DNA of 64,000 nucleotides from an uncultured Acidobacteriota bacterium (GTDB lineage Bacteria; Acidobacteriota; Terriglobia; Acidiferrales; UBA7541): assembly GCA_963780035.1 (NCBI GenBank), contig CAWAAG010000024.1:96290-160289 (forward strand), in the 5' to 3' direction. Shown here one piece after another: positions 7,657 to 62,481 of this stretch. The position numbers and the translations under genes were made by a program. The notes below the pieces were generated by a model, which worked only from the letters and a program-made list of their open reading frames with translations, searched no databases and had not been told where the DNA came from. Position 1 is the first letter of the stretch. Every line of letters begins with the position of its first letter.

Positions 7657-8403
7657 TTAGCGGATACCTCCAGTAGCCAGAAGCTGCTCGCCCGTAAGCC
7701 ACCCAGACTCATCCGACGCCAGAAACACCGCAATCGGCGCAATGTCGCTGACCTTGCCAGTGCGTCCCAGCGGCGCCTGCGCAATCAACACCTTCTCGAA
7801 GTCCGATCCGATGAACCCGCCGGTCTGCGTCCCTTCCGTCTCGACCATTCCGGGATTGATCGTATTCACGCGAATTCTCCGCGGCCCCAGTTCCCGCGCC
7901 AGCACCCCGGTGATCGCATCCAGCGCCCCTTTACTCGCCGTGTAAACCGTCGAATTCGCCGGCGTCAAACGGCTGACCCCCGACCCAATGTTGATGATGC
8001 TCCCGCCTTCGCCCATATGCTTCACCGCCGCTTGGGTAGTGAGGATCGCGCCCAGCACGTTCACGTTAAAAATCTTGTGAAAGTTTTCTTCGCTAACCGC
8101 CTCCAGCGGAGCGAACTCGTACAGCCCGGAATTGTTCACCAGTATATCCAGACGTCCGTAGCTCTTGATGGCCGCGTCAATAATGCCCTTCGCCTCGGCC
8201 CCCTTCGACACATCGCCGCCCACCGCCACAGCCTTCCCACCGGCCGCCGTAATCGCGGCAACCACCTTCTCCGCGCCAGTCTTGCTCGAAGCATAATTGA
8301 CCACCACGGACGCGCCTTCCGCCGCAAGCGCCTGCGCGATGCCTGCTCCAATGCCCTTCGATGCTCCGGTAACAACCGCCACTTTTCCAGTAAGCCTGCC
8401 CAT
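7657..8403 (-). CDS. Short-chain dehydrogenase/reductase (SDR, glucose 1-dehydrogenase/FabG-like)
   Basis: Track ORF 7657-8547 trimmed to the ATG at 8403 (MGRLTGKVAVVTGASKGIGAGIA). Rossmann TGxxxGIG, NNSG and YxASK catalytic motifs. Length then is 248 aa, typical for an SDR. Confidence 0.85.
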   Translation of the reverse strand: MGRLTGKVAVVTGASKGIGAGIAQALAAEGASVVVNYASSKTGAEKVVAAITAAGGKAVAVGGDVSKGAEAKGIIDAAIKSYGRLDILVNNSGLYEFAPLEAVSEENFHKIFNVNVLGAILTTQAAVKHMGEGGSIINIGSGVSRLTPANSTVYTASKGALDAITGVLARELGPRRIRVNTINPGMVETEGTQTGGFIGSDFEKVLIAQAPLGRTGKVSDIAPIAVFLASDESGWLTGEQLLATGGIR

Positions 8404-10036: not shown

Positions 10037-11422
10037 ATGTATTTCTTTTATCGCATCCTGACGGCAGTCGGAATGTTCATCCTCGCGCCCTATTTCGCGC
10101 TGCGCGGCTGGCGCGCCGGAGAGCCTTCGCGCGCGCTCCGCGAGCGTCTGGGCAGCCTGCCGCCCGAAATTGCCGCTCGCGCCGCGGCTAGCTCCAGGGC
10201 CACAATTGCCAGCACTAGAGACGCCGCCGCTACAGACGCCGGCACAACCTCTGGCCCGATCTGGATTCACGCTGTTTCCGTCGGCGAAGTCCTCGCCGCC
10301 AAGCCCCTCGTCGATGGGCTGCAACGCCGCTTTCCCGGACGCGCCATCTTCGTCTCCACTACCACGGAAACCGGCCAGCGTCTCGCCCGCGAGCGCCTGC
10401 AATCCACCGACGGCATCTTCTATTTTCCGTTGGACTGGGTCGTGCCAGTCCGCCGCGCGCTGCGCGCGATCCGCCCCGCGCTCGTGATCATCATGGAGAC
10501 CGAGATCTGGCCGAATTTTCTACGCGAAGCTCGCCGCGCCGGCGTCCCGGTAATTTTCGCAAACGCGCGCATCTCCGAAAAATCCTTCGCGCGCTTCGAG
10601 CGCTGGGAATTTCTCGTCGGCGCATTCTTTAACCGCACCATGCGCGACGCGGAACTGTTTCTGACGCAATCTCCTGAAGACTCCGCGCGCCTTCTCGCCA
10701 TGGGCGCCGATGAAGACCGCATCGAAGTCACCGGAAACCTGAAATACGACGCCGAGCCGCCCGCCGTCGGCCGCTTCGGCACCTGGCTCGACCAGGAAAT
10801 CCGCCGCCAGGAACGTTGGCCGGTTCTGGTCGCCGGCAGCGTCGTCGCCGGAGAAGAAGACGCCGTGCTGGCGGCCTACGATCTCGTCCAGCGCCAGTGG
10901 CGACACACGCTGCTGATCCTTGCCCCGCGCAAGCCCGCGCAATTCGATACCGCCGCGGAAATTGTCGCCGCGGGCGGATGGAAAGTCGTGCGCCGCAGCC
11001 AACTCGACTCTGCCGCATCCCTCGACGATGACACCGACGTCCTGCTGCTCGATTCCATCGGCGAACTAGCCGGCCTCTATTCGCTTGCCGACGCTACTTT
11101 CGTCGGCGGCTCGCTCGCCCCCGCTGGCGGACACAACATCCTCGAACCGGCCTGGTTTGCTCGCCCGCCTGTCTTCGGCGCCTCCATGGAAAATTTCCGC
11201 GAAATGGCCGACCAATTTCTCGACGCGCATGCCGGCGTCCAGGTCACCTCGGGGCCCGGCCTCGGAAAGGTCTGGATCCAGCTCATCCAGGACGAAAAAA
11301 TGCGGGAACGCATGGGCAAGGCAGCGCGCGCCATCTCTGAACGCAATCGCGGCGCCACCGAACGCTCGCTCAATCGCATTGCCGCGATACTGAACGAATC
11401 CGCCAAGGGAAACGCCGCGTGA
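10037..11422 (+). CDS. waaA: 3-deoxy-D-manno-octulosonic acid (Kdo) transferase
   Basis: Start moved to the ATG at 10037 (MYFFYRILTAVGMFILAPYF, typical KdtA N-terminal anchor). Motifs IWIHAVSVGE, ETEIWPN and GGSL...GGHN(I)LEPA are characteristic of KdtA/WaaA (GT30). Overlaps lpxK by 4 nt. Confidence 0.85.
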   Translation: MYFFYRILTAVGMFILAPYFALRGWRAGEPSRALRERLGSLPPEIAARAAASSRATIASTRDAAATDAGTTSGPIWIHAVSVGEVLAAKPLVDGLQRRFPGRAIFVSTTTETGQRLARERLQSTDGIFYFPLDWVVPVRRALRAIRPALVIIMETEIWPNFLREARRAGVPVIFANARISEKSFARFERWEFLVGAFFNRTMRDAELFLTQSPEDSARLLAMGADEDRIEVTGNLKYDAEPPAVGRFGTWLDQEIRRQERWPVLVAGSVVAGEEDAVLAAYDLVQRQWRHTLLILAPRKPAQFDTAAEIVAAGGWKVVRRSQLDSAASLDDDTDVLLLDSIGELAGLYSLADATFVGGSLAPAGGHNILEPAWFARPPVFGASMENFREMADQFLDAHAGVQVTSGPGLGKVWIQLIQDEKMRERMGKAARAISERNRGATERSLNRIAAILNESAKGNAA

Positions 11423-12474
11423 CGTTCGCCGAATTCCTGCTCGCGCCGCTCTCGATTATTTATGGCGCAGTCGCGCACCTTCGCGCGCGCGCCTATCGCC
11501 AAGGAATTCTTAAGTCGCGGCGTCTCAGTGGTACGGTCATCAGTGTCGGCAATCTTACCGTCGGCGGCACCGGCAAGACTCCCATGGTCCTCTGGATCGC
11601 CGAGCGTCTCGCCTCCGAAGGCAAGAGCGTCGCCATTCTTACTCGCGGATATCGCGGCCGTCCCAGCGAATCAAGACCACCCAACGCTTCAGCTTCGAAC
11701 GCCTCCACCAGCGACGAAGTGCGCATGCTGCAATCGCGCCTCGGCGACCGCGTTGCGTTCGGTGTCGGCCCCGATCGCTACTCCAACGGCGCCGCACTCG
11801 CAAAGCGCGGCATAAACTGGTTCGTCCTCGACGACGGCTTCCAACACCTGCAACTCGCGCGCGATGTGGATATCGTCCTGATTGACGCGACGAACCCTTT
11901 CGGTGGCGGCCGCCTGCTCCCCGCCGGACGCCTCCGCGAATCGCGCTCCGCACTCGCCCGCGCGGACATCCTCGTGATCACCCGCAGCGACCATGCCCCG
12001 GCGGTCGAAGCCGCCGTCCGTCGCGAAACCGATGCGTCGATTTTTTACGCGCGCCCGAAGCTCGACGCCATCCACAGCTTCACGGACGGCCAGCTCGCTG
12101 GCAGTGTCGTCCCGAATGCTCTGGGCCCGCTCTTCGCCTTCTGCGCCATCGGCAACCCGCAATCCTTCCTGGCCGACCTGCGCGCGTGGGGTCTCGAAAT
12201 CGCCGGCCACAAATTCTTTCCCGATCATCACCGCTTTACGGACGCCGACGACGAAGAAATCCTGCGCGCGGCCACCGAAGCCGACGCCACCGGCCTGATC
12301 TGCACCGAAAAAGATCTCTACAATTTGCACGCCATCCATCACGGCAAAATGCCAATATTCTATTGTGCGATTTCGATGCAAGTGGACCGCGAAGACGAAT
12401 TCTGGAATGAACTCCTGGCGACAGCTAAATCGCGCGCCGAGGCATCTCAGTTAAAATTGCAAGTGACGAAATGA
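11419..12474 (+). CDS. lpxK: Tetraacyldisaccharide 4'-kinase
   Basis: 351 aa. P-loop VGNLTVGGTGKTP, then ILTRGY, DDGFQH and CTEKD motifs typical of LpxK. GTG start overlaps the waaA stop (GTGA). Confidence 0.85.
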   Translation: MTFAEFLLAPLSIIYGAVAHLRARAYRQGILKSRRLSGTVISVGNLTVGGTGKTPMVLWIAERLASEGKSVAILTRGYRGRPSESRPPNASASNASTSDEVRMLQSRLGDRVAFGVGPDRYSNGAALAKRGINWFVLDDGFQHLQLARDVDIVLIDATNPFGGGRLLPAGRLRESRSALARADILVITRSDHAPAVEAAVRRETDASIFYARPKLDAIHSFTDGQLAGSVVPNALGPLFAFCAIGNPQSFLADLRAWGLEIAGHKFFPDHHRFTDADDEEILRAATEADATGLICTEKDLYNLHAIHHGKMPIFYCAISMQVDREDEFWNELLATAKSRAEASQLKLQVTK

Positions 12475-54982: not shown

Positions 54983-56056
54983 ATGGCGCAACGCAAGCAG
55001 CTGTCCTGGACGGAACTGCGGGTAGGACTTTTCGTGCTCGCCGGCTTGTTCATTCTCGCGGTGGCGATCTTTTACATCACCGGCGCCGGTATTCTCGGCC
55101 CGAAGTATCGCCTGTACACCTACCTCCCCGAGGTCGAGGGCGTCACTTCCGGAGCACCGGTGCGCCTGGACGGCGTCGCCATCGGCAACGTCGAGCAGAT
55201 CGGCCTGAATCCGCATCCCAGCGAGCGCAGCCAGAGCATCCAGCTGGTCTTGCGCATTGACAAGAGATTTCAGCAGGACGTCCGCACCGACTCCACCGCC
55301 AGTCTGGTCACCGAAGGACTGCTCGGTGACCGCTACGTCACCATCAAACGCGGCCTCATTGGCCAGCCGTTGCAACCCAATAGCACGGTCCCCGGCGCTC
55401 CGGCCGTGGCCATGACGGAAATGGTCGAGCGCGGCACCGATCTTCTCGATACTTTGAACACCGTCTCCGGCGACCTGAAAGGCATCATTGATCAGATCCA
55501 GGCCGGACAGGGCACCGTCGGCAAACTCATCAAAGATCCCGCGCTCTACAACAATCTGAACGCCACCATCGTGCGCCTCAACGACGTCGCCTCCAACATC
55601 CAGCAAGGGAAGGGCACTGCCGGAAAATTCCTCACCTCCGACGAGCTGTACAATAAAGTCAACACCACCGTGGACAACGTCAACGACGTCCTCGGCGCCG
55701 TGAAGGAGCAAAAGGGCACCGCCGGAAAATTGATCTACGATCCCGCCGTCTACAACAGCGCCAAATCTTTCCTCGACAACGGCAACGCCGTCCTCACCGA
55801 CGTCCGCGCCGGCAAAGGCTCGCTCGGCAAGCTCGCCACCGACGACGCGCTCTACAACAATCTCCGCGACGCTTCCTCGCAAGTGAAAGAAGCCACCGCC
55901 AAGCTCAATTCCAATCAGGGCACCGCCGGCAAATTCTTCAGCGACCCGGCCCTCTACGACAACCTCACCGGCATGAGCGGCGACCTGCGCTTACTGATCG
56001 CCGACTTCCGCAAAGACCCCAAAAAATTCCTGCACGTGAAACTCGCCGTCTTCTAG
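54983..56056 (+). CDS. mlaD: MlaD/MCE-domain protein with C-terminal tandem GTAGKL repeats
   Basis: N-terminal TM (LRVGLFVLAGLFILAVAIF), MCE domain (GVTSGAPVRLDGVAIGNV). Then five ~36-aa repeats: G(K/Q)GT(A/V)GK(L/F)..D..LYN.L. Confidence 0.8.
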   Translation: MAQRKQLSWTELRVGLFVLAGLFILAVAIFYITGAGILGPKYRLYTYLPEVEGVTSGAPVRLDGVAIGNVEQIGLNPHPSERSQSIQLVLRIDKRFQQDVRTDSTASLVTEGLLGDRYVTIKRGLIGQPLQPNSTVPGAPAVAMTEMVERGTDLLDTLNTVSGDLKGIIDQIQAGQGTVGKLIKDPALYNNLNATIVRLNDVASNIQQGKGTAGKFLTSDELYNKVNTTVDNVNDVLGAVKEQKGTAGKLIYDPAVYNSAKSFLDNGNAVLTDVRAGKGSLGKLATDDALYNNLRDASSQVKEATAKLNSNQGTAGKFFSDPALYDNLTGMSGDLRLLIADFRKDPKKFLHVKLAVF

Positions 56057-56096
56057 CCGCGGGAGACGCGATTAAAAGAGGCGTCACTCGCGAATC

Positions 56097-56158
56097 GTGA
56101 CCAGCCTGCCGGCGAGGCAGGTTGGCGAGTAGTGACCCGCCTGCCGGCGAGGCAGGTT
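56097..56158. repeat. Tandem duplicate of gtgacc-N-gcctgccggcgaggcaggtt hairpin unit (35-nt period)
   Basis: Hairpins cctgcc-ggcga-ggcagg at 56104-56123 and 56139-56158. A related cctgcccgccgcaggcagg lies at 56937-56955. Confidence 0.8.
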
Positions 56159-56239
56159 CGTGACTCGTGACGCGTGTCCCGCGCCTCCATTCGGCGCGCC
56201 CCGGCGGCAGTCTTTCGGGTTCGTGCTCTTCGCCTGGGA

Positions 56240-56486: not shown

Positions 56487-56515
56487 GTAGGGGCGGGTCT
56501 GAGACCCGCCCCTAC
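56487..56515. repeat. REP-A palindrome (copy 3)
   Basis: gtaggggcgggtctgagacccgcccctac. Intergenic. Confidence 0.85.
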
Positions 56516-56550: not shown

Positions 56551-56883
56551 CTAGCCCTCCTCATCCAGCACGAGCTCGATCTCGCTGGTCTCTTTGTTCC
56601 CGCCGCCCGCGTCGTCGCTCGGCGCGACGAAACCGGTCTGTCGCGGCGTGCGCGGCGTCAAGGGCCAGGCGATCTTCTGCATCTCCACCAGCGTGTGGCT
56701 GGTCATGCTGACGTACCGCGAGCATTCCCGGACGGCAAACGTGACCCGCCGCTCCGGGTAGGTCGCCTGGCACACCACCAGCAATTCGCTCTCGCGGAAG
56801 CCGCGAGCGATGTGCGCCTGCGTGCAACTCTCGCACAACGACGGCCCCTGCACCGGCGTCCCGCCTTTTACCTTCACTCCCAC
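56551..56883 (-). CDS. Small hypothetical protein with four cysteines (CxxC...C...C)
   Basis: 110 aa, MGVKVKGGTPVQGPSLCESCTQAHIARGF...VVCQ...RECSRYV. Acidic tail. Normal composition, no domain recognised. Confidence 0.5.
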   Translation of the reverse strand: MGVKVKGGTPVQGPSLCESCTQAHIARGFRESELLVVCQATYPERRVTFAVRECSRYVSMTSHTLVEMQKIAWPLTPRTPRQTGFVAPSDDAGGGNKETSEIELVLDEEG

Positions 56884-56966: not shown

Positions 56967-57317
56967 CGTTTTCTTCCAAGCCCGCCCAGGCGTAGGCCCG
57001 CCGGGCAGGGCAGCGCAGCGCCCGCAAACAATTACACCCACCCATCCTTGAGTTTTTAGGGCCAACGACTGCGATCGCGGGAAACGTTACGAGGAGGGAC
57101 TAAAGCCCATTCGGCCACAATCCCAGCCCGGCGCCACCGCCGTCAGCCCCAACGTCGAATTGTGTATGTGCATCACCATGCCGAATGTTCTCCAGCATCG
57201 CCAATGTAAGCCACCACAATCAATCCAATCAACTCAAATCCCCCGGACGGCGAAAATCCACACCCAAACGGTGCGCACGCCAGGCCGAAACGCGAATTAC
57301 CGCTCCTGAAAACGCCA

Positions 57318-57348
57318 TTGCGCGCAAGCGAATACTACTGCTTATAAT
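57318..57348 (+). promoter_or_regulatory. Possible sigma70-like promoter upstream of the AAA_13 ATPase gene
   Basis: ttgcgc-N19-tataat (perfect -10 at 57343-57348), with a second tataaa at 57359-57364, in an A/T-rich stretch ~95 nt upstream of the ATG. The spacer is longer than optimal. Confidence 0.25.
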
Positions 57349-57442
57349 AACGCACTGGTATAAATTAGCGGTGCTCGATCCGTGGGGGTGCGGCGGCACT
57401 TGCCAACGGCCCCTTCTCACCGAGTGTTAGGCGGAGCACCAG

Positions 57443-59752
57443 ATGATTGCAGGCATACAGCTTCTTCAAAGTATCGGGCAATTCGACCACGTCCCCGCGG
57501 GAGCGATCGATTTCGCCCGTTATGTACTTGTTTATGCCGAAAATGGGAGAGGCAAAACTACCCTTTCGGCCGTATTGAGATCGTTAGCGACCGCAGATCC
57601 CGTTCCGATAGTCGAGCGGTCACGACTCGGAGCGAATCGCCCGCCCAACGTCGTAGTGAATTGTCGAAGCGGCATAACGCCAGCGGTCTTCGCAAACGGC
57701 AATTGGAATCGCCAGTTCGCGGAGATAGCTGTCTTCGATGATGATTTTGTTGACCAGAACCTGTACTCCGGCGTGAACGTCGAGCTTGGCCACCGCCAAA
57801 AGCTTCATGATCTAATCTTGGGATCACGCGGTGTTGATCTTAATCGGAGACTTAGGGAACTTGTCGATCGGGTGGAGCAGCACAATGCTGAGCTGCGCGC
57901 CAGGGCGGCCGTCATCACCGACGCGATTCGTGGACCATTTTCGGTGGACGAGTTTTGCGCGTTGCCAAGGGCCGATGGCCTAGAGCAACAAATAGGTCAG
58001 CTGGAGCGGGAACTGGCCGCTGCGGAGCACGCCGCCACCATCCGAGGGGCACAAAGATTCTCGCCGTTGCGCCTACCTGCTTTCGATCTAGGGAATATTC
58101 GGCACATTTTAGCCACTACCTTGGCCGACTTGGACGTGGTGGCCGTCGAGCGCGTCCGACAACACTTCACGAACATTGGCCCTGAGGCAGAGACTTGGGT
58201 ACGTAGTGGCATGGGGCGCGTGAGCCACACGGCGGACGGTCACGAAGCGTGTCCATTTTGCGCGCAGGTTCTCGATGGATCGGAGCTATTGCGTCTCTAC
58301 CGGTCGTATTTTGGAGCCGAGTATGCTGGACTCAATAATTCCATTGCCGAGGCTTTGACCAACTTCGACCGCTCGTATCCCGAGACCGCTGGCGCGCAGC
58401 TGGAGCGGACGCTGCGAGTTGCCGGCGAACTACAGCACTTTTGGTCGCGCTTCATGGAGGTGCGACAGATAGAGTTCCAGACGGAGGACGCTATCAATGC
58501 GTGGGAGACGGTCAGGTCGGGCCTGCGGCGGCAACTTGTTGCGAAGATCGCCTCGCCGCTGTCTGCGATGGAGATCCCGAGAGAAGTGAATGAATCCTAC
58601 AACTCGCTGCAACCGTACTTCGCGCTAATAGCTGGCATCAATGAGTATCTTGAAGCAACGAACCTCCAAATTGTAGAAATGCAGCAGCGAGTTGGCGCGG
58701 AAGCCCTGGGAATTCTCCGTGACCGTCTCAGCCGTATTCAAGCAGCCCACAAGCGCAGGCAGCCATCGAACGTCGCCCTGTGCGATGCGTACATCGCCGA
58801 GAGAGACGCGAAGGAGACCACAGAACAGCTTCGAACTGGTGTGCGTGAGGAGCTTGAACAACATCGAATCGCTGAGTTCCCGTTGTACGAAAATTCGATC
58901 AACGGCTACCTCCAAAGGTTTAACGCTGGCTTTCGGTTGGGCAATGTGGAACCGATAGACAATCGCGGTGGTGCAGCGTGTAACTACCAGATAATGATTC
59001 GCGAATGGCCGGTTCGTGTGGCAGGTGGGAATCCCGTACCTGGGGAGCCAAGTTTTAAAAGCACTCTCAGCGCTGGGGATCGGACGACCCTCGCTTTCGC
59101 GTTCTACTTATCTTCTCTCGACCGAGATCCGGCACCTGCGTCTAGAATCGCGGTGATTGACGACCCGATAGCCAGTTTGGACGAACACCGCGCGATGTCG
59201 ACTGTACAGGAAATTCAAAGGCTGGGCCGACGATTGGCCCAGGTGATCGTCCTTTCTCACGACAAGCCATTCCTTCTTCGAATCTGGACCCATCTAGCAG
59301 GCGAAAATCCCACTACGGTGAGAATCGACCGAGACGGTGATGGCTCCTCAATAGCACCTTGGGACGCTCAGAGCGACTTGCTCAGCGATCATGCGCGTAA
59401 CCACGCCCTAGTTCGATCGTACGTAGCGAACGGTCCACGCAATAACGGACGCGACGTTGCCATTGCGCTACGATTGATACTCGAAGGCTTCCTGCGGTCA
59501 GCATATCCGGGCGAATACCCACCAGGGCCGGGCGCCATGGGCGGCTTTCGCGAGATTTGCAGACAACGAGTCGATGGCGATCGAGGGGTCCTTTCCCGAG
59601 ACGATCTCGACGAACTCGATTTGTTACTTCAGTACGCGAATCAATTTCATCACGACACCAATCCTGGGTGGCAACACGCCGCTGTAAACGATGCAGAGCT
59701 GAACGGATACGCCCAACGGGTTCTTAGATTCGCGGCTCGCCCGCGTGCGTGA
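57443..59752 (+). CDS. AAA_13-type ATPase with coiled-coil/CxxC insert and C-terminal PrrC-like anticodon-nuclease motifs (RloC-like candidate)
   Basis: 769 aa. GGAG lies 7 nt upstream of the ATG. Walker A ENGRGKTT (57542-57562), long helical insert with CPFC (58250-58261), LSAGDRTTL signature, Walker B IAVIDDP, C-terminal R677-x3-E681 ... H736/H737 (59471-59653). Assigned from motif memory, not from a search. Confidence 0.7.
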   Translation: MIAGIQLLQSIGQFDHVPAGAIDFARYVLVYAENGRGKTTLSAVLRSLATADPVPIVERSRLGANRPPNVVVNCRSGITPAVFANGNWNRQFAEIAVFDDDFVDQNLYSGVNVELGHRQKLHDLILGSRGVDLNRRLRELVDRVEQHNAELRARAAVITDAIRGPFSVDEFCALPRADGLEQQIGQLERELAAAEHAATIRGAQRFSPLRLPAFDLGNIRHILATTLADLDVVAVERVRQHFTNIGPEAETWVRSGMGRVSHTADGHEACPFCAQVLDGSELLRLYRSYFGAEYAGLNNSIAEALTNFDRSYPETAGAQLERTLRVAGELQHFWSRFMEVRQIEFQTEDAINAWETVRSGLRRQLVAKIASPLSAMEIPREVNESYNSLQPYFALIAGINEYLEATNLQIVEMQQRVGAEALGILRDRLSRIQAAHKRRQPSNVALCDAYIAERDAKETTEQLRTGVREELEQHRIAEFPLYENSINGYLQRFNAGFRLGNVEPIDNRGGAACNYQIMIREWPVRVAGGNPVPGEPSFKSTLSAGDRTTLAFAFYLSSLDRDPAPASRIAVIDDPIASLDEHRAMSTVQEIQRLGRRLAQVIVLSHDKPFLLRIWTHLAGENPTTVRIDRDGDGSSIAPWDAQSDLLSDHARNHALVRSYVANGPRNNGRDVAIALRLILEGFLRSAYPGEYPPGPGAMGGFREICRQRVDGDRGVLSRDDLDELDLLLQYANQFHHDTNPGWQHAAVNDAELNGYAQRVLRFAARPRA

Positions 59753-59766
59753 AGTCGCCGCCCTTT

Positions 59767-60153
59767 CTAGGCGCCGCTGTCTTCATATGCCTTCGTTCCA
59801 CGACCGCGGGCGTGTCTGCGAGACGTCTTGCGGGGGTGACGTTCCTCGGATAGCTCGGATAACACCACCGGTGCACGGTCGGGGAATTCGGCTACGATGC
59901 GCACTTCGCCGCCCATGGCCTTAACTGTCTTGCGGAGAGTGGAGAGCAATAGATCGCTGCGTTTTTCCAGGCGCGAGACGCTGTCCTGGGTGATTCCGAG
60001 AGTTTTGGCGACGCGGGTTTGCGTTAACTTGCGAGCCTTGCGGAGGTCGCGCAAGCTCATTTCCTCGGCAATGATCTCAGCCGCGCGGCCTTGCACTTTC
60101 TTGCGCTGGGCTGGACTTAGCTTGCGAATTATCTCGTTGACGTTTACGGGCAT
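59767..60153 (-). CDS. XRE-family HTH protein (HigA/Gp49-partner antitoxin-like), no adjacent toxin ORF
   Basis: 128 aa. aagggga lies upstream of the ATG. HTH (LRKARKLTQTRVAKTLGITQDSVSRLE), then LSTLRKTVKAMGGEVRIVAEFPD, the usual tail of XRE antitoxins paired with RelE/Gp49-type toxins. Basic disordered C-terminus. Confidence 0.8.
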   Translation of the reverse strand: MPVNVNEIIRKLSPAQRKKVQGRAAEIIAEEMSLRDLRKARKLTQTRVAKTLGITQDSVSRLEKRSDLLLSTLRKTVKAMGGEVRIVAEFPDRAPVVLSELSEERHPRKTSRRHARGRGTKAYEDSGA

Positions 60154-60317
60154 GGTTACGTCCCCTTAGCGATGCGGGCAAGAGTTTCCGCTTGAATTTG
60201 TCGGCCATCGCTACGGTCCGTGGCACGCTACTGATATGGCACAGAGTACATTACGGCGTCAGATCCATAAGAACGTGCGGGCTTTCGAACCGTCACCGAT
60301 TCTTCCCGAGCGAATGA

Positions 60318-60725
60318 TTACTGCCGTTTGACGTTTGCGCGCATCCACGCGGCGAAGGCGTCATCGTCCATCTTTCCCGCGGCGAGGCTGAGGACGATTT
60401 GTGCGGCGGCTTCTTCCGTGGCGTTGAAATGATAGCCATTGATTTCGAGAAACAGCACAGCGATGACGAAGCCTGTGCGCTTATTTCCGTCGAGAAAGGG
60501 GTGGTTACGGATAATGCCGATAGCATAGGCGGCAGCCATGTCCACGATGTCCGGGTTGTCTCCGTAAGCGTGGAGTTGCCGCGGCTTTGCCAACGCGGAT
60601 TGCAGCAGCGCATGATCACGAACGCCTTGGGGACCGCCCTCGAGAGCAAGAACGCGCTGATGAATCGCGAGGGCGTCCCGCTCGTCAATCCACACGGGAC
60701 TGCGGGGACGTCTACGTTTTGTCAC
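60318..60725 (-). CDS. doc: Type II toxin Doc (death-on-curing, Fic fold)
   Basis: 135 aa. Fic/Doc motif HPFLDGNKRTG. GTG start overlaps the antitoxin stop by 4 nt (GTGA). Confidence 0.9.
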   Translation of the reverse strand: MTKRRRPRSPVWIDERDALAIHQRVLALEGGPQGVRDHALLQSALAKPRQLHAYGDNPDIVDMAAAYAIGIIRNHPFLDGNKRTGFVIAVLFLEINGYHFNATEEAAAQIVLSLAAGKMDDDAFAAWMRANVKRQ

Positions 60726-60949
60726 TTGGAGAGCGCGTGCAGTGTGTTGCGATAGCGGCCGATGATTTCCTCGGCCTTTTCCATTTTCTTCTGGAATGCC
60801 GGATCGTAGGGGGTGAGCTGATAGGCGCCGTTCGGACCTTCGATAAGGAACAGGCGGTCGCCGTCATCCGCTTGCAGGCGATGCACGGCTTCCTTGGGGA
60901 GCACCACGCCGAGGGAATTGCCTATTTTGCGCACTTTGAGTTCGAGCAT
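60722..60949 (-). CDS. AbrB/MazE/SpoVT-family antitoxin (Phd-equivalent partner of Doc)
   Basis: 75 aa. MLELKVRKIGNSLGVVLPKEA swapped-hairpin motif. aagga RBS. Translationally coupled to doc. Confidence 0.85.
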   Translation of the reverse strand: MLELKVRKIGNSLGVVLPKEAVHRLQADDGDRLFLIEGPNGAYQLTPYDPAFQKKMEKAEEIIGRYRNTLHALSK

Positions 60950-60961
60950 GAGCTTCGTCCT

Positions 60962-60991
60962 TTGTTATAACAATTGTAGCAACTTTGTCTT
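60962..60991 (-). promoter_or_regulatory. Putative promoter/operator of the AbrB-doc operon
   Basis: On the minus strand: aagaca-N16-tataac, then aagga RBS and ATG. The perfect 12-nt palindrome ttgttataacaa (60962-60973) overlaps the -10, followed by caattg. This fits an autorepression operator. Confidence 0.4.
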
Positions 60992-61006
60992 GGAGGCGCA
61001 AGCGGC

Positions 61007-61090
61007 GGGTGGCCCACCCTTCTAGCGCAGGCAACCAACCGCCTCTTAGGTTTTGTGGGTGCCGCATCCCTTTGCGCAGTTTGCAAAGGG
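61007..61090. repeat. Two further palindromic elements (gggtggcccaccc; ccctttgc-N7-gcaaaggg)
   Basis: Perfect 13-nt palindrome at 61007-61019 and an 8-bp-stem hairpin at 61068-61090, in the spacer right of the AbrB-Doc operon. Confidence 0.65.
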
Positions 61091-61460
61091 CGCGTGGCAA
61101 GACGTCAAGACCAACCCCGTTTCCCAAAAGCCGTCGACCGTACCGTGCCCGCCCCCCCACCTATTCCCATTTTGGGACTGGTAATCATGCAGTAAACATG
61201 ATAAAATAGACCCGGGCCGCTTTTCCAGCCCACTGAGGACGCTACATGCACTCCGCCACAACGGCGACGGGCAGACCACACCCACCCTCACGGAAAACTC
61301 TACCCAAAAGCCGCCCCGCGCCCCTCACCGCACGCGCCCCGCATCACCCCGCCGCCCCAAATCCGCATGTAACACCCCAACTACAATGTTACATCCCCGC
61401 TCCCGCAGTCACTCGTTTACCCAGAGCGCGTTCTGCGAAGGGTCACTCATCACTTGTCAC

Positions 61461-61830
61461 TGTAAATCCAATCGCCAACCCGCGCGATTAGAATTCGCTA
61501 TATCTCCTACAAAACAAACACCCGCACCCCAATTCAATCGCCAACAAATTGCCACTTCCAGATTCACGACACACTCGTCACGCAACACCTGCGGGCCGCG
61601 AATCGCGGCGGCACTTCTCGATACAAATGGACGCTTGCGCTCGAACAATAATTCGCGCAACTCGTTCAAAACAAACCGTCGCGTCAATTCTTATTCGATA
61701 CAAACCGCAACGCTCGCTGCAAAGTACACCACTGCGGGGAGCGTTTCTAATCGACAATGGCAGATATTAGAAATCACCGTAAACCTCTCAAAACAAACGA
61801 TCGCACCCCGTTCTAATCGACACAAAAACG
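61461..61830. repeat. Tandem array of three degenerate ~60-65-nt hairpin-type repeats with interspersed half-sites
   Basis: Units at 61486-61548, 61647-61706 and 61766-61830 share (g)attagaa.tc...tc.caaaacaaac...cgc.c...ttc.aatcg.ca.caaa. In unit 3 the arms attagaa/ttctaat are exact reverse complements. Half-sites (ttct[ca][ag][at]tcga[tc]acaa.tgg) lie at 61614-61630 and 61744-61760, and a related one at 61465-61480. Confidence 0.75.
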
Positions 61831-61947
61831 CGTTGTTTGCATCCCGCTTGCCCAGAGGATCGCGCCGCGGTCCGAAGGGGATGAGGCAGCGGGACGCGAT
61901 ATTCAAATGCCAAAAATCAGGAGTGGCTCTTCAACCCGCCGCGAACG

Positions 61948-62481
61948 TTACTTACTCTCCGGCGGCGGGGTGGTGCGCACCCACCAGACTTGGCCGCTGT
62001 AGTCTGAGAAGCAGACGTGGGGGCCTGAGGCTTCCAGGACGCCTTTGGTGTGATCGAAGAACTCGGTTGTGGCTACCAGGTTTGCGGAGACGGCTTCGTC
62101 CCAGGGCTCGTATCTGGATTCTTCGGTGGTTTCGGCTTGCAGGATCTTTTCGATTTGCTTGCGGAGTTCTTCTTTGTCGAGTTTTTCTTTGCCGGCGTTG
62201 TAGCGGCGGATGCGGATGGTTTCGATGGGTGCGCCGATCAGGTCTGCGAGGGGGACGGGGTCGTCGAAGTTGCGATAGCCGTCTCGCGGCGGAGCGAAAG
62301 CGCTGCAGGTCTTGCCGAAGGGTTCGGCGGCGGTGAGGGAATTTTTTTCTGGCGGCGGTGATTTTTCGAGGTCGAGGACTATTTTCGGGTCTTTGGGTTT
62401 GGCCTGGGAGTGGCCGGGGCGGGCGACGAGGGCGGCGAGCGCGACGAGCGCGGCGAGTTTTTTGGGGCGGTTACGCGTCAT
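61948..62481 (-). CDS. Secreted hypothetical protein
   Basis: 177 aa. Signal peptide KKLAALVALAALVARPGHSQA, charged middle section. 11-nt overlap with the upstream AMP-binding gene suggests co-transcription. Confidence 0.5.
   Translation of the reverse strand: MTRNRPKKLAALVALAALVARPGHSQAKPKDPKIVLDLEKSPPPEKNSLTAAEPFGKTCSAFAPPRDGYRNFDDPVPLADLIGAPIETIRIRRYNAGKEKLDKEELRKQIEKILQAETTEESRYEPWDEAVSANLVATTEFFDHTKGVLEASGPHVCFSDYSGQVWWVRTTPPPESK

Follow-up and report, generated by a model that had tools for sequence, protein, structure and literature searches.

An intact orphan member of the RloC family from an uncultured Acidobacteriota, in a branch with both hsd-embedded and orphan copies

Introduction

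Does a lone gene for a large ATPase, carried by an uncultured Acidobacteriota (Candidatus Acidiferrales), code for an anticodon nuclease (ACNase) of the RloC type and, if so, what would keep the nuclease silent? The window (the whole 64-kb stretch of DNA that was analysed) contains a 769-aa ORF that a sequence-only reading had proposed to be a divergent RloC-like tRNase. It was considered odd for the lack of restriction-modification (R-M) genes, for a long Glu-to-His spacing and for its toxin-antitoxin (TA) neighbours, and was suggested to form an uncharacterised branch with a different silencing partner.

RloC was originally delineated by a screen for ABC ATPase motifs, a CXXC and an Arg-x3-Glu...His triad, leading to 72 sequences of 658–897 aa, with a Glu-His spacer of x36–52 and often a Ser before the His, of which 8 were R-M-linked (Davidov & Kaufmann 2008). 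RloC genes are indeed usually found without R-M linkage, often as lone cargo genes. The characterised members are GkaRloC of Geobacillus kaustophilus (YP_146738) and AbaRloC of Acinetobacter baylyi (YP_044948) (Davidov & Kaufmann 2008; Klaiman et al. 2012, 2014).

Gene structure

The 769-aa ORF and the motifs previously listed for it were all present where the sequence-only reading had placed them. The gene, its ribosome binding site and its closest neighbours downstream are as follows.

57443..59752, + strand: RloC-family gene, an ATG ORF of 769 aa plus stop codon
57433..57436, + strand: Shine-Dalgarno-like GGAG, 6 nt 5' of the ATG, read directly
59767..60153, - strand: XRE-type HTH gene, neighbour, convergent with the RloC-family gene
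60318..60949, - strand: Phd-like/Doc toxin-antitoxin pair, neighbour

The start codon of the ORF is well defined, since the GGAG lies at a distance of 6 nt and an in-frame TAG is found five codons upstream of the ATG. Promoter and terminator scans at the locus performed no better than on shuffled sequence. No tRNA or ncRNA is linked to the gene, as none turned up anywhere in the window in tRNA and Rfam scans.

Assignment to the RloC family

As expected from the sequence-only reading, the protein matched Pfam AAA_13 (PF13166), scoring 125 bits over residues 225–685 (cutoff 36 bits; E 5.4e-36). The search of defence-system models for RloC and PrrC, also recommended there, had a mixed outcome. 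The best HMM match was the PADLOC candidate PDC-S06 (E 1.7e-58, residues 1–686), a bioinformatic label without a described mechanism, whose models matched all the 40 family members scanned and which stops before the last ≈85 residues, those with the His motif. On the contrary, the PADLOC PrrC model gave 28.5 bits and covered the ATPase motifs alone (residues 569–621), with no full-length PrrC profile match. NCBIfam returned just generic ABC-ATPase matches, far under their cut-offs. Lamassu LmuB, PbeC/Dnd, PARIS AriA, AbiL and MADS were discarded as candidates, their weak matches being confined to the ATPase motifs and their partner genes being absent.

At E ≤ 1e-5, 1849 homologues were retrieved, many of them carrying the JGI COG-based name 'wobble nucleotide-excising tRNase'. 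Conservation was evaluated on a sample of 120 homologues with 44–50% identity, except one at 89% (L089). Phage genomes gave no match by tblastn, leaving a phage-borne origin unsupported.

A connection with the founding RloC list was provided by a protein of Rhodoferax ferrireducens T118 (WP_011458761.1), aligned by BLASTP over residues 1–761 with 31% identity (E 5e-93). Organism, length and a 'helicase like' flank all agree between this protein and entry #39 of that list (Table S1), and these three points, with no accession cross-reference, are the basis for equating it with YP_515976. It has 770 aa, compared with 769 in the window protein, and shares the CPFC, the corresponding C-terminal motifs (VRLFLEGF and RFHHDTNPG) and a Glu-His spacer of x53; it is likewise an orphan, located near a helicase-related gene and trfA. 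It differs in being plasmid-borne and in belonging to another sub-branch (31% identity versus 44–50% within the group of the window protein). The link to the characterised GkaRloC and AbaRloC is indirect, running via the founding list, the COG name and Pfam.

The RloC-like core of the sequence-only reading was thus supported by the AAA_13 match and the full-length T118 alignment, as well as by the invariant Arg, Glu, His and CPFC residues and the SMC/Rad50-head model described below. The gene is intact and is nothing out of the ordinary for the known RloC family, the protein also falling within the published size range of 658–897 aa.

ATPase head and coiled coil

The features of the ATPase head and of the insert that splits it are listed with their position in the window.

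57539..57562, + strand: Walker A / P-loop ENGRGKTT, residues 33–40; E33, N34, G35, R36, G37 and K38 100% conserved
57785..58918, + strand: helical coiled-coil insert, about residues 115–492, splitting the ABC ATPase head (AF2 model)
58250..58261, + strand: CPFC, putative zinc hook, C270–C273, in a conserved E-x-W-x3-G...C-P-F-C-x-Q block
59066..59083, + strand: ABC signature LSAGDR, residues 542–547; G545, D546 and R547 invariant
59147..59182, + strand: Walker B and D-loop IAVIDDPIASLD, residues 569–580; D573, D574, P575, S578 and D580 invariant
59258..59260, + strand: H-loop (switch) histidine H606, invariant; its VLSHDKP surroundings align with the Rad50 H-loop

All four groups of ABC ATPase motifs expected of an RloC are therefore present, and they are invariant over 116–121 homologues. 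The signature extends as LSAGDRTTL over residues 542–550 and aligns with the Rad50 signature region of PDB sequences, while Walker B reads IAVIDDP at residues 569–575, within the IDDPxxSLD stretch at 572–580. Its Asp-Asp pair corresponds to the essential Asp215-Asp216 of PrrC. On the contrary, the terminal Arg specific to the PrrC Walker A is missing from the window protein, as the residue following ENGRGKTT is a Leu. Sequence searches of the PDB gave a match limited to the Rad50 signature/Walker B stretch, indicating that no close relative has been solved.

The full-length AF2 model (pLDDT 84.1) shows the insert as long helices from 115–157 through 441–492, for a total of ≈378 aa, slightly less than the ≈400 aa previously estimated; its single CPFC was as described, and is the sole CxxC of the 769-aa protein. 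The C270, F272 and C273 residues are conserved in 100% of the 120 homologues, and four distant AAA_13 proteins carry CPFC-x-Q in the same register. In the model the CPFC sits in a loop, with helices 249–257 and 281–311 on either side. The insert thus shows the ATPase-splitting coiled coil with a CXXC (C-x-F-C) that characterises RloC, the zinc hook being putative; in GkaRloC, the C291G substitution leads to hyperactivity.

When the full-length model was searched with Foldseek, the lowest E (4e-9) was obtained with 5xei, an SMC head with its coiled coil; the matches also included Rad50 (7zr1), cohesin, condensin and Lamassu LmuB. The window protein has in common with Rad50/SbcC/SMC the head fold, the coiled coil leaving the head and the CxxC hook; it differs from them in the much shorter coiled coil, in having no Mre11/SbcD partner gene and in its C-terminal nuclease-like module, which Rad50/SbcC do not have.

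C-terminal module

The region following the ATPase head contains the residues that would form the nuclease active site.

59306..59749, + strand: C-terminal module, about residues 622–769, putative anticodon-nuclease domain; beta-hairpin plus five-helix HEPN-like bundle (AF2)
59471..59497, + strand: R677-x3-E681-x3-R685, in helix 669–687; Arg-Glu of the ACNase triad and also a HEPN-type E-x3-[KR] motif
59639..59662, + strand: His motif N733-Q-F-H736-H737-D-T-N740, at the end of helix 719–735

The C-proximal Arg-x3-Glu...His triad of RloC is present, with R677 and E681 contained in ALRLILEGF. The conservation analysis advised by the sequence-only reading was fully in its favour, since C270, C273, R677, E681, H736 and H737 were each found in 100% of the 120 homologues. 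In the family alignment (121 sequences), R677, E681 and R685 are 100% conserved, as are H736, H737 and N740, and N733 is conserved in 93%. Moreover, R-x3-E-x3-R is in register in the T118 protein and in Arcobacter, Vibrio and Psychrobacter relatives, and the His motif aligns with the S-H-H or S-H of other AAA_13 branches, the window protein having F-H-H-D-T-N and not the S-H typical of RloC. Both R692 and E696 of GkaRloC are essential, as are R320 and E324 of PrrC.

H736 lies 55 residues past E681, i.e., with 54 residues in between (x54), exceeding the published x36–52. The long spacing previously remarked is therefore real; however, it does not appear odd when compared with RloC, the proper reference, rather than PrrC. 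Indeed, the whole branch has either x53 (89 proteins) or x54 (22 proteins), and the published range is no strict bound of RloC, as the T118 protein matching the founding list has x53 by the same count.

The domain model of the module (pLDDT 89.7, AF2) comprises helices 649–663, 669–687, 698–709 (the insert), 719–735 and 750–764. Judged against the published description, this resembles the topology of HEPN RNases (HepT toxins, Csm6, AF0298-type), with a four-helix core, an insert between helices 2 and 3, an E-x3-[KR] on helix 2 and a third core helix ending at a His. The structural comparison that had been suggested was only in part supportive: the full-length model fits SMC/Rad50 heads, whereas the fold match of the module was below significance (best Foldseek E 0.41). 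HEPN entries nevertheless made up most of the top TM-scores in the latter search, recurring at 0.4–0.6, namely 2hsb (probability 0.85, TM 0.60), 1wol, 4nqf, 5yep, 6m6w, 3o10 and 6tug, and HepT toxins, sacsin and Csm6 were among the best, not significant, matches. A Foldseek search against viral structures (BFVD) returned nothing meaningful, and Pfam on the module alone gave no match up to E 10.

A difference from canonical HEPN RNases is the absence of the Rx4-6H Arg: no Arg occurs 4–6 residues before H736/H737, residues 729–732 being V/L, E/Q, Y and A. N733-x3-H737 is in the register of the essential N352-x3-H356 of PrrC, and position 730 would accordingly be the equivalent of PrrC R349, the strictly essential Arg of its HEPN Rx4-6H motif, an equivalence set by motif register alone and not by PrrC alignment. 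Glu occupies this position in 93% of the family and the window protein has Gln there, while the equivalents of PrrC R349 and N352 are said to be conserved in RloC.

The missing Arg could suggest, together with the fact that no characterised nuclease was matched significantly in sequence or fold and that the module is a sequence family of its own, confined to this architecture, that the module is not an ACNase, being instead active on another substrate (mRNA, rRNA or DNA) or a non-catalytic binding domain, so that an SMC-like sensor would be coupled to a different output. We regard this as rather improbable, given the invariance of R677, E681, R685, H736, H737 and N740, the R-x3-E and His in register across RloC-like branches and the N-x3-H register shared with PrrC. 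Furthermore, HEPN families without the motif Arg and with other conserved basic residues are documented. An ACNase thus remains the preferred assignment for the module, and a tRNase activity of the window protein would follow by analogy with the characterised RloC proteins.

The module was found in 465 representative clusters, with full-length matches listed at about 757–792 aa. A short, PrrC-like form was looked for among the matches of 360–470 aa: the seven inspected lack a Walker A and start within the coiled coil, and are consequently read as truncated gene calls. A further match, P0157, was a spurious one to a repeat protein.

Genomic neighbourhood and hsd linkage

No hsdM, hsdS or hsdR gene or relic was detected by tblastn in the whole 64-kb window, 4.2 kb of which are downstream of the gene (all E > 0.2). 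The lack of R-M genes reported by the sequence-only reading holds true; however, it is not unusual in a family with R-M linkage in just 8 of 72 founding members. The same applies to the TA neighbours: the Phd/Doc pair was confirmed, but Doc toxins beside RloC-like genes were already described in 2013, and the pair is not a conserved partner. The absence of R-M genes, the long Glu-His spacer and the TA neighbours should not, therefore, be scored as anomalies in RloC-like genes. No flanking direct repeats were found that would mark the boundaries of an island.

The hypothesis that the convergent HTH gene, or the Phd/Doc pair, acts as a silencing or regulatory partner in a multi-gene module might be prompted by the HTH gene ending only 14 nt from the RloC-family stop codon, with the same layout in the 89% relative L089, and by the Doc association in the literature. 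However, L089 is 89% identical at nucleotide level over the whole 3 kb, the shared layout being mere synteny between close relatives, and the genes are convergent and not co-transcribed. When the neighbours were clustered at 85 loci, no HTH, Doc or Phd gene recurred beside the family, and the orphan copies had no conserved neighbour in common. Such a partnership is hardly credible, and the different silencing partner envisaged by the sequence-only reading finds no support.

Linkage with type I R-M genes does occur in other parts of the branch. At least 20 of the 80 species-level homologues are located inside type I hsd operons and hsd remnants occur at three more, a finding that is new here; about 57 are orphans, including all the closest relatives. 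The ≈767-aa branch of the window protein thus mixes hsd-embedded and orphan copies. Homologues of 47–48% identity are found in operons of the order hsdM-hsdS-[gene]-hsdR, in which stop and start codons overlap or abut, and this hsdS-[gene]-hsdR slot is the published position of prrC in hsdMSR. In L029, L015 and L041, intact genes persist after deletion of hsd genes.

Besides the slot filled by part of the branch, PrrC (E. coli prr locus) and the window protein share the ABC ATPase motifs, including the Asp-Asp Walker B, as well as R-x3-E, N-x3-H and a nuclease fused in cis. They differ in that PrrC has 341–416 aa, no coiled-coil/zinc-hook insert and is always hsd-embedded. With its 769 aa, an insert of ≈378 aa with CPFC and a window free of hsd genes and relics, the protein cannot be assigned to PrrC.

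A PrrC-like regulation is a different matter. According to this hypothesis, a type I restriction enzyme with its genes in another part of the genome would silence the protein in trans, and the nuclease would fire when a phage anti-restriction factor disables the enzyme. The founders of RloC had indeed proposed an interaction with R-M in trans, and, as hsd operons hold at least a quarter of the branch in the prrC position, dependence on Hsd in trans keeps some weight. We nonetheless consider it unlikely for the window copy, as neither an hsd gene nor a relic is present in the 64 kb, the closest relatives are all orphans, intact copies outlive the deletion of their own hsd genes, and DSB inducers activated AbaRloC also when the host was R-M-deficient.

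Integrity of the window copy

Orphan status could also point to a gene that, once its R-M partner was lost, became an inactive remnant or is decaying; the founders had remarked that RloC orthologues of R-M-less bacteria might in some cases be inactive. The window protein does depart from well-conserved positions (D651 to Ala, E730 to Gln) and has a Gln at residue 734, where the family majority has Arg. However, the ORF is full length with a ribosome binding site, all the residues invariant in the family are kept, no hsd relics are found on the flanks, and residue 734 is variable over the family, with Arg or Lys in 84%. The dN/dS between the window gene and its 89% relative is 0.185. Decay is thus very improbable, and the window copy is an orphan under purifying selection.

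Proposed mechanism and meaning

Taken as a whole, the gene is an intact orphan member of the RloC family, in which a Rad50/SMC-like ABC ATPase, a CPFC-tipped coiled coil and a putative C-terminal HEPN-like anticodon nuclease would probably operate with no need of a linked silencer. The mechanism is modelled on that of GkaRloC and AbaRloC, the characterised members. The nuclease would be kept off internally, with the ATPase and zinc hook of the same protein serving as the switch. DNA binding and ATP hydrolysis would turn the nuclease on, presumably in response to breaks or ends, or to foreign DNA, upon infection or genotoxic stress. The anticodon loops of tRNAs would then be cut at the R677/E681/H736-H737 site, with translation arrest as a consequence, and the protein might work as an abortive-infection or stress device.

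A further, doubtful possibility is that the ≈767-aa branch represents a functionally distinct RloC lineage, with R-x3-E-x3-R and N-x2-H-H-x2-N in place of the motif Arg, which switches between Hsd-coupled and autonomous orphan copies and leaves visible deletion intermediates. Since the PrrC/HEPN motif Arg is replaced, the target or the cleavage chemistry of the branch may differ from those of GkaRloC and AbaRloC; the missing R349 equivalent is a concrete active-site difference that can be tested. The 'uncharacterised branch' of the sequence-only reading is acceptable only as regards the biochemistry of the ≈767-aa members. According to a published idea, RloC derives from a PrrC-like ancestor by gain of an internal silencer, and the coexistence of hsd-embedded and orphan states with relic intermediates bears on it. 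If the lineage were truly distinct, it would offer a natural series on how an abortive-infection nuclease becomes independent of an external silencer.

The locus itself matters very little, since what this Acidobacteriota carries is a further copy of a defence-type gene that is widespread. Genes of this kind are named just 'AAA family ATPase' by annotation pipelines.

An RloC-family gene

The 769-aa ORF at 57443–59752 (+) is a genuine gene, starting with an ATG that is preceded 6 nt upstream by GGAG and five codons upstream by an in-frame stop, and purifying selection acts on it (dN/dS 0.185 in comparison with its 89% relative). All the motifs reported for its product by the sequence-only reading were found in place:

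Sequence motifs of the window protein
Residues 33–40: ENGRGKTT
Residues 270–273 (nt 58250–58261): CPFC, the sole CxxC
Residues 542–550: LSAGDRTTL
Residues 569–575: IAVIDDP
R677-x3-E681: within ALRLILEGF
NQFHH: H736 lies 55 residues after E681

The protein belongs to Pfam AAA_13 (125 bits, cutoff 36). In PADLOC it scored best against PDC-S06, a candidate family (E 1.7e-58, residues 1–686), and the PADLOC PrrC model covered its signature/Walker B stretch only (28.5 bits). Since no model named RloC matched either the window protein or the 40 family members scanned, RloC-like proteins seem to be represented as PDC-S06 in the PADLOC copy used. No specific match was retrieved from NCBIfam. A large protein database contained 1849 homologues at E ≤ 1e-5, many of them carrying the JGI label "wobble nucleotide-excising tRNase" (the RloC COG name), and the best 120 of the 1849 were full length, nearly all of 757–792 aa, with 44–50% identity. 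A sequence identical to the window protein was that of a Candidatus Acidiferrales MAG (Acidobacteriota). No homologue was found in sequenced phages. Over 116–121 of the best homologues, 100% conservation was observed for G35-K38 (Walker A), G545, D546 and R547 (ATPase signature), D573, D574, P575, S578 and D580 (Walker B/D-loop), H606, the hook residues C270, F272 and C273 and, in the C-terminal module, R677, E681, R685, P689, F702, H736, H737 and N740.

The founding RloC paper of 2008 screened candidates on exactly three features (ABC ATPase motifs, CXXC and the Arg-Glu-His triad), and several proteins of 767–770 aa are listed in its Table S1, including a 770-aa one from Rhodoferax ferrireducens T118 with a "helicase like" flank. 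A protein-level plasmid search located this T118 plasmid gene (WP_011458761.1); it codes for 770 aa, and a helicase-related gene lies upstream of it. BLASTP aligned the two proteins over residues 1–761 (E 5e-93, 31% identity), with CPFC, VRLFLEGF and RFHHDTNPG of the T118 protein all matching the window protein. In a five-way alignment including more distant plasmid AAA_13 proteins of Arcobacter, Vibrio and Psychrobacter, the hook (W-x3-G...CPFC-x-Q), the R-x3-E-x3-R helix and a distal S-H-H, F-H-H or S-H were in register. The initial RloC-like call was thus a correct recognition, supported by the AAA_13 assignment, the T118 alignment and the invariant motif residues. Judged on its sequence, the gene is an orphan member of the RloC family (a copy without linked R-M genes), of a kind already known; its tie to the biochemically characterised RloCs of Geobacillus kaustophilus (GkaRloC) and Acinetobacter baylyi (AbaRloC) is indirect.

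Predicted structure and active site

The full-length AF2 model (pLDDT 84.1) runs from an N-terminal head lobe through a long, segmented insert of helices (residues 115–492), with CPFC in a loop between them, to a C-terminal head lobe, and ends in a helical module. Foldseek against the PDB matched it to SMC heads with coiled coils, Rad50, cohesin, condensin and Lamassu LmuB (E down to 4e-9). Modelled alone, the C-terminal module (pLDDT 89.7) forms a beta-hairpin and five helices and had no significant fold match (best E 0.41); HEPN structures recurred among its best TM-scores (2hsb, 1wol, 4nqf, HepT toxins, sacsin HEPN and Csm6), and its predicted helices follow the order described for HEPN in the literature. 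E681-x3-R685, on the second core helix, corresponds to the HEPN E-x3-[KR] motif, core helices two and three are separated by an additional helix, and H736/H737 immediately follow the third; unlike canonical HEPN proteins, the window protein lacks the Rx4-6H arginine. HEPN families with the histidine but without the arginine are documented.

Mutagenesis of PrrC found R320, E324, R349, N352 and H356 to be essential, and these were stated to be conserved in RloC. R677, E681 and N733-x3-H737 match this register, but position 730, equivalent to R349, carries Glu in 93% of family members and, in the window protein, Gln. Judged by motif register, this missing arginine is the one real difference from the active site known for RloC and PrrC. 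The long Glu-His spacing singled out beforehand does occur (x54) but is no anomaly, being a trait of the whole branch of ~767-aa proteins (x53 in 89 proteins, x54 in 22; x53 in T118).

A second strongly conserved block of the module, residues 648–658 (nt 59384–59416; T-E-H-D-R-R-H-x2-L-R, family conservation 84–98%), reads S-D-H-A-R-N-H-A-L-V-R in the window protein. It lies 19–29 residues ahead of R677, roughly at the place of the essential PrrC His295, and its R652 and H654 are also present in T118. As a sequence family, the C-terminal module comprises 465 representative clusters, with full-length members among the matches listed of ~757–792 aa. The short, PrrC-sized matches inspected were read as truncated gene calls, because they start within the coiled coil and have no Walker A.

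Embedded and orphan copies

In three of the first four long-contig homologues the gene lies in an hsdM-hsdS-[gene]-hsdR operon, where stop and start codons overlap or abut; within hsdMSR, prrC has been published in this hsdS-[gene]-hsdR slot. A set of 80 species-representative genomes, covering more than ten phyla, had at least 20 hsd-linked loci, three further loci with hsd remnants only, and ~57 orphans with no partner in common, the last count being an upper bound because several loci have short flanks. Recombinases were found nearby in eight loci. In the three remnant loci, an intact RloC-like gene (~767 aa) is flanked by type I operon remnants. In L029 (7888–7989 and 10309–10660) the final ~34 aa of HsdS adjoin the gene start, and HsdR residues 1–35, fused to ~1004–1045, lie just past the stop codon; in L015 (7822–7989 and 10309–10653) stop codons interrupt the remnant; in L041 the remnants span 7713–7970 and 10330–11490. 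These loci look like snapshots of an embedded copy becoming an orphan. Embedded and orphan copies were intermixed in a rough NJ tree, in which the window copy clustered with other orphans, L040, L046 and L071 (Acidobacteriota) and L001 (metagenome contig). P0004, P0005, P0006 and P0012, the copies most closely related to it, are orphans as well, amid housekeeping or IS genes. What novelty remains sits at the level of the branch, with its variant putative active site and clear evolutionary series from embedded to orphan.

The absence of R-M genes was borne out, as tblastn with three Hsd protein sets found no hsdM, hsdS or hsdR gene or relic in the 64-kb window (all E > 0.2). It is not an oddity: the founding paper found R-M linkage in only 8/72 RloC genes, and according to later work rloC "rarely features such linkage", and mobile elements often carry it as their only cargo. 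By analogy with GkaRloC and AbaRloC, the zinc hook, together with the DNA-dependent ATPase, would act as an internal switch, whereby DNA (breaks) and ATP hydrolysis would turn the nuclease on, leading to anticodon-loop cuts and a halt of translation. With such a switch the gene would be able to travel and persist without a linked silencer, and the intact genes outlasting hsd deletion fit this model. A PrrC-like reliance on a trans-acting type I enzyme is conceivable for the window protein, since the window covers 64 kb of its genome and hsd-embedded copies make up a quarter of the branch.

At L004 / L005 (2640–7959), one hsd operon has hsdS and the RloC-like gene separated by a TIR_2-domain gene (357 aa), and a divergent gene for an RtcB RNA ligase stands immediately upstream of hsdM; the presence of an RNA repair ligase beside a putative tRNA nuclease is suggestive. 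Translation of the homologues at L008 (1856–4159) and L012 (8001–10301) stops at codons 135 and 26, respectively, as a result of either pseudogenisation or misassembly. One Acidobacteriota MAG has two copies, L008 and L046.

Surroundings of the gene in the window

Three genes lie downstream:

59767–60153 (−): XRE-type HTH gene
60318–60725 (−): Doc toxin gene
60722–60949 (−): Phd/MazE-like antidote gene, overlapping the Doc gene

The HTH gene lies on the same strand 164 nt beyond the Doc/Phd pair (60318–60949), with 14 nt between its end and the RloC-like gene's stop codon. The toxin-antitoxin neighbours had been regarded as unusual; the pair is present, but the occurrence of RloC-like genes in Doc-toxin neighbourhoods has been known since a 2013 report, and on all three counts the gene had been over-rated as odd. 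Neighbour clustering of 85 loci found no recurrent HTH, Doc or Phd neighbour; the HTH gene recurs solely beside the 89% relative (L089), a case of plain synteny. The window copy is free of any conserved neighbour partner. At 57000–62000, G+C is reduced (0.54–0.60, vs 0.60–0.66 over ~9 kb upstream), as would fit a small islet, acquired horizontally, that comprises Phd/Doc and the RloC-like and HTH genes; neither flanking repeats nor an integrase were found there. Scans of the whole window detected no tRNA genes or Rfam matches.

Upstream, a divergent 110-aa ORF (56551–56883, −), a candidate gene, had no Pfam, PADLOC or NCBIfam match. Just past an MlaD-like gene, two tandem 35-nt units (56090–56159), each with a GC-rich hairpin (CCTGCCGGCGAGGCAGG), are followed 330 nt further on by a perfect 14-nt palindrome (56487–56515), in a ~1.4-kb stretch without a convincing gene; these are REP-like or terminator-like elements. 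The MlaD-like gene itself (54983–56056) contains at 55508–55973 five in-frame 102-nt repeats, 66–78% identical to the reference copy, coding for a repeated GTAGK(F/L)...DPALYNNL unit.
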